A stretch of 64,000 bases of DNA from Planctomycetota bacterium (GTDB lineage: Bacteria; Planctomycetota; PLA2; JAEUHO01), in assembly GCA_965222115.1 (NCBI GenBank), contig CBDCTJ010000003.1, positions 192,001 to 256,000 of the forward strand, given 5' to 3'. A program made the position numbers and the translations under genes. The notes below the pieces were generated by a model that made no database searches, was not told where the DNA came from, and saw only the letters and a program-made list of their open reading frames with translations. Shown in pieces: positions 4,369 through 9,725 of the stretch. Numbering within the stretch: position 1 is the stretch's first letter; every line of letters begins with the position of its first letter.

Positions 4369-4641
4369 CTAGCCTCCTGAAATGGCCTGGACAATAAGGA
4401 TTTCGTCCCCGTCGCTGAGCGTGTGTTCGCCGAACGTGGCGCGAGGCAGGACTCGTCCATTGAGTGCACACAGCACGTGAGGACGAAGCGCGCCCTTGCC
4501 TTCCAAGATGTGGGCTCGAAGTCGTGGCAGCATCGCACACGCTGCCTCGAGTCCTTCTCCGACCGTTTTGCCTTCTACGCGCACGCGATCGGCCCCGACG
4601 GCAACTTTAAGCACTGAAGGGAGCCGAAGGGTCGCGCTCAA
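4369..4641 (-). CDS. MoaD/ThiS-family ubiquitin-like (beta-grasp) sulfur-carrier protein
   Basis: LRLPSVL...GKTVGEGLE...LRPHVLCALNG...LSDGDEILIVQAISGG with C-terminal diglycine; TTG start overlaps the upstream TGA (TTGA at 4641-4638). Confidence 0.9.
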   Translation of the reverse strand: MSATLRLPSVLKVAVGADRVRVEGKTVGEGLEAACAMLPRLRAHILEGKGALRPHVLCALNGRVLPRATFGEHTLSDGDEILIVQAISGG

Positions 4642-5759
4642 GACACGACTGCCACAGTTACAGAGAGAATGCCGGGCAGGTGCTGCGCGATGATGCTCCA
4701 ACTCACGCCGCCGTCGTTGCTGGCAAAGAGCGAACCACCTTGCGTACCGAAGTAGACACCGCAGGGATCGAGTGTGTCATTCGTTAGGGCTTGGCGAAGC
4801 ACGCTCACATGCGCATGCCGCCGGGGTAATCCGCGGTTGCGCTTGCGCCACTTCTTTCTTCGACCGTACTCGTAGATCGCCAACTCGCCGTCCGTGGCGC
4901 GAAAGCTATAGTCCACATGGGCAAGGGGGATCACGAAGCAGGAATGCGGGTCTTGCGCATGCAACGCGAGCCCGAATCCAAAGTCCGATGGGAGACCGCC
5001 GTCGATGCGCTCCCAGCCCTCCCCCGCATCGATCGACTTGTAAACGCCTACGTGATTTTGCTGGTAGAGAAGACCCGGAACCTCCGGGTGCGCGAGCAGC
5101 TTATGCACTCAAGTGAATACTTCGCTCTGCTCCGGCGCGCCGACGTAGCTGGCGACGCAGCTATTGATGGGCTTCCACGTGGTACCACCGTCGTCTGAGC
5201 GAAACGCTCCCGCAGCAGAAATAGCCGCGTACATGCGAGCCGAATCGCCAGCGTCAAACTGGATGCTGTGCAGGCACTGTCCGCCCGCCCCAGGCGTCCA
5301 GTCCTTACGCGTCTTGTGCTTGTTAAGACCGTCCACCGGCTCCCACGTCTTCCCGCGATCCTCGCTGCGGAAAAGTCCAGCGGGTGCGGTGCCCATGTAG
5401 AGCACGCTCCTTTGCTTGGCCGGGCCTGGCGTGATGTTCCATATCTTCGGCGACGCATCGAGCCCGAATTGCTTAGCAAACTTTGACGCCTTCGGATTGA
5501 GCTTCGGAAACGTGGGCAGACGCTCGGCTGCCTTGAATTTCAAAGTGCGTAGCGGCGCGGACTGCACTGTTACACCGAACGCGTAGTGCGACGCACCCGC
5601 ATGAAGTTTTGGTGCACCGCGTGTATCGATCACCGCGTAGGGAACCTGCCAACCCCGTAGCAGTGGCTCGGAAACGCTCCACCGCTTACGTCCGACGCCT
5701 CCCTCGACAAGAAACAGTCCGCGCTTTGTGCCGACCGATAGGATTACACGTCGTGCCAT
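4638..5759 (-). CDS. BNR/Asp-box beta-propeller (sialidase-like annotated family) protein, 373 aa, with in-frame TGA at 5111-5109 (codon 217); candidate selenoprotein
   Basis: ORFs 5109..5846 and 4638..5108 are contiguous in one frame (SEVFT-TGA-VHKLLAHP); Asp-boxes SEDRGKTW, SDDGGTTW, SIDAGEGW, SNDGGVSW lie on both sides of the TGA; GGAGG RBS before ATG 5759; N-terminal VGTKRGLF motif. Confidence 0.85.
5060..5108 (-). promoter_or_regulatory. Putative bacterial SECIS element
   Basis: mRNA after the UGA: GUGCAUAAGCUGCUCGCGC-ACCCGGA-GGU-UCCGGGU-CUUCUCUACCAGC; perfect 7-bp stem (5073-5089), GGU loop 26 nt after the UGA, possible lower GCUG/CAGC pairing. Confidence 0.65.
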
Positions 5760-5975: not shown

Positions 5976-8900
5976 CTACCTAATGTCGACCCGAAGCGTG
6001 CAGCGTGCGACACGGCCTTCGGCAATCACCAGAGGTTGCTCGACGACATGCGCCGGTGACCCATCGACGCGCACTCGAACGGTGTAGGGACCGGGTCGCA
6101 GATCGGGAATAACAAGCGAACCATCTTCGGTGAGCCGCCTCGTTCGCTTGCCTACCGAGGCATCGGAGACTTCAGGTAAGTGAACGAGCGGTAGCGATTC
6201 GCCCCGTTGAAAGAGCGATACTTCGGCACCGCGCAGCACATGCCCGGCGCTGTCCTCAATGCGCACGTGCGCCGATCCCGATGGCACGAGCGTAAGTTTG
6301 ACCGTAGAAAGTCGGCCGGATCGCACGGGAATTAGCGACGACATCGCCCGGCCATAACCCTGCGCATGGACGCGCACGCACGCGCTTCCAATGGCCACGC
6401 CTTCGAGCAAGAGTTTGCCGTCCATGCCGGTGGTGAGCGTGGAGCGGTGCAAAGGATGTCCATCGGCATCGTGAATCACAACCGTCGCATCCGGCACGCT
6501 CTGTTTCGATTTGTCGATGGCCCACACCTCAATGCGTCCACCGTGGCTGAAGCGAAGATCCATGGAAATCGTATGACCGGCTTTGTCGCTCTGCATATTG
6601 TCGGCGAGTAGCGGTGGCCATCCCTCGGCTCGAACTTCCACGTTGTAGCGTCCGTAGGGAACGCCCGCAATTCGAAAGCGACCCAACGCATCACTGCGCC
6701 CGCGGGCTTCAAAGACAGGGCCGTCATAGCTCTTGGACGCTTTGTTGCCCATCCATGTCGCAATGACGTCGGCCTCCAACACGGGATCGCCAAAGGCGTC
6801 AACCACCGTGCCTTCAAGCAACGCGTCATACACTTCGAGCTCCACCTCGACGTCTTGTCCCTCGTTAAGTTGAACGACGTGCTCTACTTGCATCGCGGCG
6901 TCGGTCTGGCGCAGGCGATAACGACCGGGTGGAATGCCACGAACCGAAAAGCGTCCGTACTCGTCACTTCGCAGTGCGTGACGGCGGAAATAGGCCGACG
7001 CACCTACGTCGGTAAGTAGCAACTCAAGCGATACGCCCGCCGCACCCTCGCCCCCGTCGCGACGAATGATGCCCGACAGGTGCGTATCACTGGAATCGCG
7101 AAAGGTAACTTCGCTGCGCTTCTCATTGGCCACATCCACGAGCACCGTCTGATCGGCGGGCACCTCGATGCCACGTACACGGCGAAACAGTCGGTAGGAA
7201 CCGGGTTGCAATCCGTCGAGCTCTGCGATGCCCTGCTCCGACGTCACCATGCGCCATGTGGGACCCACATCGTCCGATCGAGTAACCGCAATCATCGCGC
7301 CATCGACCGGCTCCCCATTGCTTGCTTCGGCGCGAACCACAATCGTACCGCCGTTGGTCATGTTGATCGGGGGCAACACGAGCACTTCGTTGGGAGGGAG
7401 CCGCACAATTTGTGTATGCACGCCACCATCGGGCGTGACCACCGTAAGCCGCCAAAGACCGGAAGCGATCTCGTCGTAGGCAAACGCGCCGTTGTCGCGC
7501 GTGGTCGTGACGCGTTTGCACCCCGGCCCATAACGCGCCATGCCGGGACCCTGTAGGCGCTCGGCTTGAATGCGCGCGCCAAACACGGGCTTTCCGTCGG
7601 CGTCAAATACGGAACCCGCAAGGCGCGAGATGGGCATGAGCGTGAGCGAGACGCCGTCCACATTGTCGGTTTTCACCAACACGCTTTGAACATCGCTGTC
7701 GCGCAGGCCCTGCACGGCACGCAACTCGTACCGACCCGGGGGAACGTCTTCGATCGTAAAGCTAATGCTCGACCCTTCGTCTTCCGTGGGATAGGTCCCG
7801 ACCTCGCGAAACGAATAGACATCCTCTTTGGCGTTGTACACGCTGGCGTAAAGCGAGACATGAATGCGTTCGTCGCGGTCGCTATCTTCGACGCGGCCCG
7901 AAATGGACACAACAGGCGGGATCACCAAATCAATGGCGGATTCAATGCCGGGCATAACCTGATCGCGCTGCGCCAACACGTGACTCGACTGCTCACCTCG
8001 TCCCAAGACTTCAAACACCAACGGGTCGGATGGGAGTCCGTCCATTTGAAATGTGCCGTCTTGACGGGATTGAATGACCTTGGTGAAGTCACTGCGATGC
8101 GCACGCGCTCGTACCGAGTAGGCGTTACGTACGGGCCCGGTAAGACGACGCACCGCGCCAGAGATCTCGTGAAGTCGAGTTAGCGTGGCCTCCACATCCC
8201 GCACTGTTCCCGACGAAGGAAAGAACTCTTTGCCACGCGCGAGTTGGTAGCCGGGCGCGGAAATGGTCCAAACCACATCGTCTTCCGGCATGTGCGCAAT
8301 GACCGCAAGCCCCTCGGCGTCAGTCGTCGCAGTCAACCTCGGCATGAATTCGGTGTCCCAGATCGAGAAGGCCTCCTTGGCCATGGGATGGGCTGTCACT
8401 TTGGCGTCGGGAACCGGTTTTCCATGAATGTCGCGCGTCTTCACGCGCAGTGACCACGCCGGCTTGACGGCGATATCCCCCACGTCGTTGGCGCCGCCCG
8501 GTGTGACATCCAGAAGCTTGTCGAGCACCGGCATGATCGCGTCGCTCACCAGCAAAATGCGATAGTCGGATGCCGGAGTAACGCCATTGATTTCGAACTG
8601 CCCGTTCTCATCGCTCATTACAGGTTGTGGCACCGCAATTCGGCTTCGCGCGTTGGACGAGTTTGGCGGACGCACCAGCGAAACCGTGACGCCTGCCACC
8701 GGTTTCTCATCGGACCAAATCACACGACCGCGCACCGTCGTTCGTCGTCGCGCAAACCAAAGCTCGCGTTCGTTGACGCGAATGTCATCCACCTGCACAA
8801 GTGTATGGGGATCGGCCAATGTCCACAGGGGATCGGCCATCTCGACGCGATACACACCCGGTTGCAATCCCGTAAAGAGAAAGCGCCCCTTGTCGTCAAC

Positions 8901-9725
8901 AACAGTTTCAAGCGGCGCTTCGTCTTCAAGCGCCGACTCGTCTTCTGTGGGTGTGCGAGTGAGCCGCTTTGCAACCGCACCGCCCTCACCCCGGGGTAGC
9001 GGCGTCAATCGAACGCGCGCACCTACGGCGTAGACTTCGCCGTGCGCATCCGCATCCATCACGCGACCGCGCAGTTCGATGCCCTGTCGCAGCGTAATTC
9101 CCTTGGCCTCACCGCCCGATTCCGCGCGTCCCAGATACTGCAACCGCCCTGTAGGCGTCCTCAGGAGCAATGAGTAAATCCCTGGGGCGAGATGATCAAA
9201 TGCGTAGCTGCCATCGTCGCTACTCGTCGCGACGGAAGCCAAGTCGCCCTTGTCGGAGGGCAATGCATAGACGACAGGCCGCGCCTTCTTCGTGGCACCC
9301 AACAGCTTGACCGTGCCGTGCAAGCGCTTGCCTTCAAGCAATCGCAATGTGACCGTCGTCATCGTCGTATCGCTTGGCACACGAACGGATGCATGGCCGG
9401 GTGCCCACACGACATAGTCGCCAGGGATTTGTCCTGACGGCTTCTTGGCTGCGAGGTAGTCCTCGATCATGCCGTCTTTATTGCTATGGGCACGAACGTC
9501 GCGACGCGGATCAAAGAGTGGTAGGTGATGCACGTGCTCTGTGACCCAACTCACGCGGGCACCCTGGAATGGACGTCCGGTCTTACCCAAGACCTGAATG
9601 CGCGCGGGCCAACTCGCTTTGGGCGTCGCGTCTTCTTTGGCAACGGATTGCGATTCAGTAACAAGCACCGCGCTACAAACAAGCAGCGTTGACATCAACA
9701 ACGTGGCGCCAAACCTCATCGTCAT
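5976..9725 (-). CDS. Large secreted protein with many carboxypeptidase-regulatory-like (transthyretin-like/Ig) repeats
   Basis: Signal peptide; recurring GRV-D-xG-PV-GA-V...TDxxGxF...L-PG-Y motifs; ATGA overlap with the tsaE stop. Confidence 0.8.
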   Translation of the reverse strand: MTMRFGATLLMSTLLVCSAVLVTESQSVAKEDATPKASWPARIQVLGKTGRPFQGARVSWVTEHVHHLPLFDPRRDVRAHSNKDGMIEDYLAAKKPSGQIPGDYVVWAPGHASVRVPSDTTMTTVTLRLLEGKRLHGTVKLLGATKKARPVVYALPSDKGDLASVATSSDDGSYAFDHLAPGIYSLLLRTPTGRLQYLGRAESGGEAKGITLRQGIELRGRVMDADAHGEVYAVGARVRLTPLPRGEGGAVAKRLTRTPTEDESALEDEAPLETVVDDKGRFLFTGLQPGVYRVEMADPLWTLADPHTLVQVDDIRVNERELWFARRRTTVRGRVIWSDEKPVAGVTVSLVRPPNSSNARSRIAVPQPVMSDENGQFEINGVTPASDYRILLVSDAIMPVLDKLLDVTPGGANDVGDIAVKPAWSLRVKTRDIHGKPVPDAKVTAHPMAKEAFSIWDTEFMPRLTATTDAEGLAVIAHMPEDDVVWTISAPGYQLARGKEFFPSSGTVRDVEATLTRLHEISGAVRRLTGPVRNAYSVRARAHRSDFTKVIQSRQDGTFQMDGLPSDPLVFEVLGRGEQSSHVLAQRDQVMPGIESAIDLVIPPVVSISGRVEDSDRDERIHVSLYASVYNAKEDVYSFREVGTYPTEDEGSSISFTIEDVPPGRYELRAVQGLRDSDVQSVLVKTDNVDGVSLTLMPISRLAGSVFDADGKPVFGARIQAERLQGPGMARYGPGCKRVTTTRDNGAFAYDEIASGLWRLTVVTPDGGVHTQIVRLPPNEVLVLPPINMTNGGTIVVRAEASNGEPVDGAMIAVTRSDDVGPTWRMVTSEQGIAELDGLQPGSYRLFRRVRGIEVPADQTVLVDVANEKRSEVTFRDSSDTHLSGIIRRDGGEGAAGVSLELLLTDVGASAYFRRHALRSDEYGRFSVRGIPPGRYRLRQTDAAMQVEHVVQLNEGQDVEVELEVYDALLEGTVVDAFGDPVLEADVIATWMGNKASKSYDGPVFEARGRSDALGRFRIAGVPYGRYNVEVRAEGWPPLLADNMQSDKAGHTISMDLRFSHGGRIEVWAIDKSKQSVPDATVVIHDADGHPLHRSTLTTGMDGKLLLEGVAIGSACVRVHAQGYGRAMSSLIPVRSGRLSTVKLTLVPSGSAHVRIEDSAGHVLRGAEVSLFQRGESLPLVHLPEVSDASVGKRTRRLTEDGSLVIPDLRPGPYTVRVRVDGSPAHVVEQPLVIAEGRVARCTLRVDIR

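Follow-up and report, generated by a model that had tools for sequence, protein, structure and literature searches.

A candidate selenoprotein β-propeller encoded with a Gly-Gly sulfur-carrier-like protein in Planctomycetota

A propeller gene coupled to a carrier gene

A 64,000-nucleotide stretch of a Planctomycetota genome (assembly GCA_965222115.1, contig CBDCTJ010000003.1, positions 192,001 to 256,000; hereafter the window, whose own numbering is used throughout) carries two genes that are both read from the minus strand and together span 4369-5759. The first encodes a 373-aa, seven-bladed Asp-box (BNR) β-propeller that is very probably a selenoprotein, and the second a 90-aa β-grasp protein of the ThiS/MoaD family (Pfam PF02597), here called the carrier. 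The propeller gene (4638..5759, TGA stop included) runs from 5759 to 4638 in 373 codons, with a single internal TGA at codon 217 (5109..5111) and a terminal TGA at 4640..4638. RNAfold places a hairpin resembling a selenocysteine insertion sequence (SECIS), with a 7-bp stem and a GGU loop, at 5073..5089, which is 20-36 nt past the UGA. The carrier gene (4369..4641) opens with a TTG at 4641..4639 and ends, in translation, in ...QAISGG. Its start codon overlaps the propeller stop in a TTGA (4638..4641), a layout that suggests translational coupling. An earlier reading of the same DNA (the original prediction) had described a propeller stop overlapping the TTG start of a 90-aa β-grasp protein ending in ISGG, and the layout was recovered when re-derived from the sequence. 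A 4-nt overlap (ATGA, GTGA or TTGA) recurs in 13 of 71 related loci and most of the remaining gaps are a few nucleotides long, counts that rest on heuristic start calls.

Pfam recognizes Sortilin-Vps10/BNR Asp-box repeats in the propeller and no sialidase catalytic domain, and AlphaFold2 models it as a single seven-bladed propeller (predicted local distance difference test score, pLDDT, 91.2; predicted template-modeling score 0.91). The sole close solved relative is PDB 3b7f, which is matched by phmmer over residues 5-368 (E 1.2e-61), by profile (E 9e-114) and by Foldseek (TM 0.89). This protein (YP_299179.1 / Reut_B4987) comes from Ralstonia eutropha JMP134 and was deposited by structural genomics as a 'putative glycosyl hydrolase with BNR repeats'; its function is entered as 'Not known' in PMC2716378. 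In an alignment of 40 sequences, the invariant positions are His164, Cys/Sec217, His219, Gln234, Asn235, His236, Arg322 and Asp328, in addition to structural Gly and Trp. 3B7F, which shares family and fold with the window propeller, retains all of these listed residues except 217, and with them the whole Gln-Gln-Asn-His stretch at 233-236; it differs in having Asp in place of selenocysteine (Sec), with H-D-P-H where the window propeller reads T-U-V-H. Judged by strand topology, the conserved residues would be found where inner strands begin and within the B-C loop, the face that usually holds the active site of a propeller.

Relatives of the propeller are publicly annotated as sialidase or glycosyl hydrolase, and the ESM Atlas returned sialidase and BNR labels again and nothing further. 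Its distant relatives are GH74 xyloglucanases, DAIP and Ycf48. Like GH74 xyloglucanases (2CN2, 2CN3) and sialidases, the window protein has Asp-box blades and an HP..PG..Y stretch before the active-site loop (profile E ~1e-15). GH74 enzymes, however, consist of two tandem propellers, whereas the window protein has one and is seemingly cytoplasmic: no signal peptide is visible on either protein of the pair, judged by eye only, and propeller residues 4-21 form the first two β-strands of the confident model. The profile alignment sets the invariant His236 at a position that differs between 2cn2 (Asp) and 2cn3 (Ala), two deposited sequences of the C. thermocellum GH74 enzyme, and which we take to be the catalytic Asp of GH74; this residue is lost in the window protein. 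The original prediction had raised a plain glycosidase as the outcome that would undo it, and we rejected this identity because the protein has one propeller, no visible secretion signal and a His at the GH74 Asp/Ala position.

Codon 217 and the predicted selenocysteine

The TGA at codon 217 is not an assembly slip, because contigs assembled from three short-read runs (two samples of one study, possibly the source of the assembly) span it with 0 differing letters. Among the 120 best database matches to the propeller, 67, with lengths of 212-228 aa, align to no more than the first 57-58% of the query and are therefore gene calls cut at the TGA; full-length matches (370-380 aa) read through codon 217. 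In alignments of 20 and 40 sequences, column 217 is an invariant Cys in the 19 and 39 full-length relatives, respectively. We collected 80 related loci from a species-level genome collection with motifs of this propeller subfamily. Codon 217 is TGA in 22 of them, TAA in 1 (L021) and TGC or TGT in 57, and the reading frame past the TGA stays open and conserved; the original prediction had called residue 217 a Sec/Cys position, and the 57 Cys codons and 22 TGA codons confirm it. A second sample was drawn from 301 genomes of the window's phylum with loci not chosen by motif. In this phylum sample, 83 genomes are propeller-positive at 101 places, 100 of which were fetched with 900-nt flanks, and TGA occupies codon 217 in 11 of these 100 loci. 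A second Sec subgroup, ~37% identical (motif G-Q-U-V-H-K; L127, L142), likewise combines a TGA at codon 217 with the hairpin.

The hairpin is conserved at the nucleotide level, third codon positions included, across 24 stop-codon forms, namely the 22 TGA loci, the window and the TAA locus L021. Most relatives form a C-C-C-G-G-C/G-C-C-G-G-G stem with a GGC loop in RNAfold, and the mean folding energy is -15.5 kcal/mol in the 24 stop-codon forms versus -9.3 among the 57 Cys forms (p 2e-9 by Mann-Whitney test, a value that overstates the case because the sequences are related). The consensus for bacterial SECIS elements places the apical loop 16-37 nt from the UGA with a G in the loop, and the window hairpin agrees with it in both distance and loop. 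The arrangement also resembles that of bacterial genes with a SECIS inside the reading frame, such as E. coli fdhF: the UGA aligns with the Cys of homologues, a hairpin whose apical loop is G-rich follows ~26 nt downstream, and selA, selB and tRNA-Sec are present. In this genome, selB (346.6 bits) and selA (480.7 bits) both exceed their curated cut-offs, as does the profile score of a selD that is split over at least three frames.

The TGA at codon 217 very probably encodes Sec, a judgment from sequence comparison made because of the Cys column, the TGA at 22 of the 80 loci, the conserved hairpin and the presence of selA, selB and tRNA-Sec in the genome. The propeller family is not named in the main text of a 2026 review that tabulates 119 prokaryotic selenoprotein families (PMC13188914), nor in the text of the BSepDB paper, and it is very probably a new selenoprotein family. 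Since the two genes overlap by 4 nt and the carrier lies downstream in 11 of 11 Sec loci of the phylum sample, it is reasonable to suppose that carrier synthesis depends on Sec insertion.

Several observations touch on these codons and genes. At L021 (886-888), TAA replaces TGA at the Sec position and the hairpin ~12 nt downstream is intact; this single G-to-A change makes it either a recent pseudogene or a variant that stems from sequencing or assembly. L175 (G208:C12) has a TGA at the codon aligned to the invariant Trp249, probably a TGG-to-TGA lesion or error and not Sec. In the genome of the window (G000), at G000:C1:654443-655637 and G000:C7:4-1329, selD has an in-frame TGA of its own within the motif G-G-U-A-A-K, and selA lies partly at the end of contig C1 and partly at the start of contig C7, so these contigs probably join there.

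The phylum sample also shows that residue 217 varies across the wider family. Sec is found in 11 of 100 loci, all with the carrier downstream, and Cys in 32, with the carrier downstream in 14, upstream in 16 and missing in 2. Asp occupies the position in 54 loci, of which 31 have the carrier downstream, 19 upstream, 1 overlapping and 3 none. In the remaining 3, an insertion shifts the alignment at 217 without hiding the D-x-H motif; 1 of these has the carrier downstream and 2 have it upstream. The Gly-Gly carrier is thus kept with all three types of residue. Asp cannot hold a persulfide or selenosulfide, and therefore a covalent relay at 217 is not the general mechanism of the family. A role as metal ligand, acid/base or nucleophile fits the Sec/Cys/Asp series better and is the more likely one on alignment evidence, an obligatory persulfide carrier at 217 would be less likely, and a transient Se-S or S-S bond with the thiocarboxylate sulfur is possible in the Sec and Cys subfamilies. 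The original prediction had the propeller act through a covalent selenyl, thioester or persulfide intermediate at 217: the Sec/Cys position it relied on is genuine, but the covalent step is unproven and more than half of the sampled loci have Asp.

The carrier, its neighborhood and co-occurrence with MoaE

Of the 80 related loci, 71 have a ThiS-like frame next to the propeller and on its strand, mostly a few nucleotides downstream and in 5 cases upstream. The 80 loci represent Planctomycetota, Eisenbacteria, Gemmatimonadota, Chloroflexota, Dormibacteraeota, Actinomycetota, Acidobacteriota and two archaeal metagenome-assembled genomes. In the phylum sample, a same-strand carrier gene adjoins the propeller in 95 of 100 loci. 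The survey of gene neighborhoods called for in the original prediction thus finds the pair conserved in both collections. The window's genome holds a paralogous pair on the minus strand of another contig (G000:C7:1119363-1120685; L002, L102), in which the carrier (...LSGG) comes first and the propeller follows; this propeller is 31% identical to that of the window and has Asp at the Sec217 position. Several other genomes have two or three propeller-carrier pairs. No publication on the pair was found in the open-access literature.

Clustering the neighbors of the 80 loci revealed no third gene conserved across phyla. Genes for CoA-transferase family III, HMGL-like, DUF255, NUDIX, DoxX and glyoxalase proteins show lineage-specific synteny only and were set aside, and a cluster of ABC-ATPases in 17 loci, of mixed lengths and positions, was treated as chance. 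In Gaiellales and Chloroflexota, loci with the pair repeatedly have CoA-transferase III and HMGL-like genes close by. In two loci (L070:3291-4739, L075:3252-4736), a stop-to-stop frame ~1 kb upstream of the carrier-propeller pair has a second ThiS-like segment directly before its CoA-transferase family III domain.

The carrier matches Pfam ThiS with 40 bits (cut-off 22.5) and falls below the NCBIfam cut-offs for SAMP1 (41.9 vs 60), thiS (37.1 vs 37.45) and moaD_arch (33.2 vs 49.5). MoaD proper, ThiS proper and SAMP1 were rejected as identities on the strength of these equivalog cut-offs, and MoaE and ThiG adjoin other ThiS-family genes on other contigs. The C-terminal Gly-Gly is shared by 38 of 38 partner carriers in the alignment, whose columns otherwise average just 42% identity. 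GG forms the very C-terminus in 54 of 71 carriers; 13 continue past it for 1-8 residues, and 4 have ambiguous ends. Searched against 1.84 billion representatives, a carrier profile retrieved 12,124 proteins at E <= 0.001. Its 150 best matches are mostly 88-100 aa long, and 21 reach at least 140 aa; the longer ones include fusions of an E1 activating enzyme with a carrier, ending in GG (P0221, P0240), a carrier-rhodanese fusion (P0218) and tandem carriers. A propeller part occurs in none of the 21, and a search of the carrier against longer proteins gave no match. Two of the tandem proteins (P0124, P0125) consist of two GG-carrier domains, in each of which GG is terminal or is followed by a short tail, in the manner of a polyubiquitin precursor.

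Pairs of a sulfur carrier and its enzyme are often translationally coupled, and the E1 may be encoded elsewhere. MoaD-MoaE, ThiS-ThiG and CysO-CysM resemble the window's pair in that a Gly-Gly β-grasp protein is encoded beside the enzyme that uses it, but the partner in the window is a seven-bladed Asp-box propeller, which is unrelated to MoaE, ThiG or enzymes dependent on pyridoxal phosphate (PLP). The genome has four ThiS-family genes, namely a ThiS beside ThiG, a MoaD beside MoaE and two linked to propellers. The MoaE and ThiG genes lie on contigs other than that of the window, and the module is, as first proposed, distinct from the MoaD-MoaE and ThiS-ThiG pairs, both of which exist separately in the genome. 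The MoaD-MoaE genes sit among unrelated genes, giving no operon context for the molybdenum cofactor (Moco) in this genome. The impression that an E1 is missing does not hold for the genome as a whole: a single ThiF-family E1, a 490-aa ThiF-TusA fusion with a further 170 residues without Pfam match, is encoded on another contig (G000:C7:1885205-1886677; L098:1474-2946), and it presumably serves all four carriers. The genome, which is 90% complete, yielded no Prok-JAB domain.

Across the 301 genomes of the phylum sample, MoaE is encoded in 81 of the 83 propeller-positive genomes versus 113 of the 218 propeller-negative ones. A MoeB/ThiF-type E1 is likewise present in 81 of the 83 propeller-positive genomes, and within the 254 genomes that have such an E1, MoaE occurs in 79 of 81 propeller-positive and 106 of 173 propeller-negative genomes. 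Among the 30 families listed, 13 of the 14 with the propeller have MoaE, compared with 6 of the 16 without it. This near-restriction of the propeller to MoaE genomes may point to a Moco-related role, as a lead and not a result.

Seven MoeB/ThiF-type E1 genes among the phylum-sample rows listed carry one in-frame TGA each (G265:C171, G275:C9, G024:C273, G229:C258, G197:C67, G290:C63, G144:C71) and may be Sec-containing E1s. All seven genomes are propeller-positive, four carry a Sec-form propeller and three belong to one genus. Table 1 of PMC13188914 includes rhodanese-like, DsrE-like and MoeB selenoproteins.

The interaction of propeller and carrier was modeled with ESMFold2 on the natural Cys-form pair of L020, using custom alignments and three controls. 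The complex scored 0.44 against 0.00 for the best control, a result given the verdict 'weak support'. Contact agreement between runs was at least 97% and partner pLDDT at least 88. In calibration, 116 of 157 solved complexes reached the mark, as did 2 of 215 mismatched pairs; at scores of 0.60 or less, just 18 of the 157 solved complexes passed, and both passing mismatches also lie in this range.

Nine frames within about 6 kb of the pair were compared with Pfam. They include an OEP (outer-membrane efflux) fragment, an extracytoplasmic function (ECF) sigma factor, a 1249-aa CarboxypepD_reg protein, TsaE and HEAT repeats, and 4 of the 9 have no Pfam match. None is a ThiF, MoaE, ThiG, PLP enzyme or JAB protein, in agreement with the original prediction that no such gene is adjacent. 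The 1249-aa protein (5976-9725, minus strand) lies directly upstream on the same strand, 216 nt away; it has at least 7 CarboxypepD_reg repeats and no counterpart at related loci. Rfam found no riboswitch or known RNA in the operon region and 20 related loci, returning only a tRNA and a sub-threshold proV match, and a promoter and terminator scan gave nothing exceeding shuffled controls. Among public sequencing runs, no RNA dataset is listed as containing this DNA.

Candidate functions of the pair

We modestly favor a dedicated enzyme-carrier pair, with the propeller as a novel enzymatic partner of an E1-activated sulfur carrier. The Gly-Gly end of the carrier would be adenylated and thiocarboxylated by the genome's single ThiF-TusA E1. 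The propeller, its UGA217 read as Sec under the direction of the hairpin 20-36 nt downstream, would then bind and use the thiocarboxylated carrier directly, as a new partner type alongside MoaE, ThiG and CysM. Residue 217 may serve as metal ligand, acid/base or nucleophile at the carrier's C-terminal (thio)carboxylate or at a substrate, and the pair as a whole may act in a Moco-related process.

A number of points weigh against this picture. The clustering of the conserved residues is a proposal based on strand topology. An E1 and MoaE lie beside the pair in just 1 of 80 loci (L061). The MoaE association is drawn from related genomes and may track genome size, versatility or lifestyle. Within MoaE-positive genomes, a xanthine-oxidase-family Mo domain occurs in 72 of 81 propeller-positive and 92 of 113 propeller-negative genomes (p 0.17), and a specific link to xanthine oxidase or CO dehydrogenase was accordingly rejected. 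The original prediction had envisaged an interface at which the Gly-Gly tail might reach residue 217; the complex prediction lends weak support to an interface, but no contacts were reported. On the selenium side, selD is split over at least three frames at most 1.2 kb from a contig end, which may be an assembly error or decay, so the Sec pathway may not be intact in this assembly. Finally, the prevalence of Asp at 217 (54 of 100 relatives) counts against a sulfur or selenium relay through this residue that is shared by the family.

Such a relay, in which the propeller loads or discharges the carrier through a persulfide, selenosulfide or acyl-(seleno)thioester on Sec/Cys217, is the form of chemistry closest to the original prediction, and we consider it unlikely. 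It would make sense of a single invariant Cys/Sec without a CxxC partner in this subfamily, of the Sec forms of rhodanese, DsrE and MoeB in Table 1 of PMC13188914, and of the seven in-frame-TGA E1 genes among the listed rows, all of them in propeller-positive genomes. Yet Asp is incapable of carrying a persulfide, 51 of the 54 Asp members adjoin a same-strand GG carrier gene (one of them overlapping the propeller match), both PDB 3b7f and the genome's own paralogue are of the Asp type, and the predicted complex yielded no contacts. A metalloenzyme, or one linked to a Mo/W cofactor, in which 217 ligates the metal and the GG carrier delivers sulfur to the center or the substrate, is a still more doubtful reading. 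Sec, Cys and Asp are known protein ligands of Mo/W in the DMSO-reductase family. If true, this reading would add a further class of sulfur-carrier-dependent enzyme, built on a β-propeller, with a selenium-dependent version in Planctomycetota.

Protein tagging by a ubiquitin-like (Ubl) system, with the carrier conjugated to lysines as SAMP, Urm1 and TtuB are and the propeller acting as target, adaptor or ligase, strikes us as improbable. The best NCBIfam match of the propeller-linked carriers is indeed SAMP1, at sub-cut-off scores (41.9 and 34.7 bits vs 60), the GG end is free, and the short tail past GG in 13 of 71 carriers recalls Ubl precursors. These features are set against the lack of a Prok-JAB in a genome 90% complete and of any conserved E2-like or protease gene near the pair, against invariant His, Gln, Asn, Arg and Asp residues that resemble an enzyme site, and against the separate carrier of each paralogous propeller, which is expected of enzyme-carrier pairs; the bacterial conjugation system that was first suggested finds no positive evidence here. 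Equally improbable, in our view, is a small protein that is a structural or regulatory subunit of the propeller without C-terminal chemistry, like TmoB of toluene monooxygenase. Tight gene coupling, the absence of a nearby E1 and the weakly supported complex would suit a subunit, but an invariant GG among columns that average 42% identity would not, nor would the E1-carrier fusions among the nearest profile relatives or the MoeB/ThiF-type E1 in nearly every propeller-positive genome. Lastly, the TGA could be an ordinary stop or pseudogene lesion and the propeller a mislabelled glycosidase that lies beside a MoaD gene by chance. The public sialidase and glycosyl hydrolase annotations, and a gene whose own stop is also TGA, lean this way. 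This account is hardly credible given a frame that stays open and conserved past the TGA, the same codon as TGA in 22 loci and Cys in 57, the conserved hairpin, the pair kept in 71 of 80 and 95 of 100 loci, and a single propeller whose His236 aligns with the residue that differs in GH74.

For the family, the annotation record is affected: thousands of 'sialidase' and 'glycosyl hydrolase' database entries are probably misannotated, and those for the Sec forms are 216-aa fragments. With the Sec form comes a further selenoprotein family, one that goes unnamed in the main text of the 2026 catalogue of 119 families. A natural Sec/Cys/Asp series at one residue offers a ready-made mutational probe of the mechanism, many genomes hold several paralogous propellers, each with its own carrier, and a solved structure (3B7F) exists. 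The near-restriction of the propeller to MoaE-bearing genomes provides a first testable lead to the pathway. To our knowledge, few enzymes work with sulfur carriers, and these belong to the molybdopterin, thiamin, cysteine, thiosugar and tRNA thiolation pathways; a conserved propeller partner in many phyla would mark an undescribed sulfur-transfer reaction.

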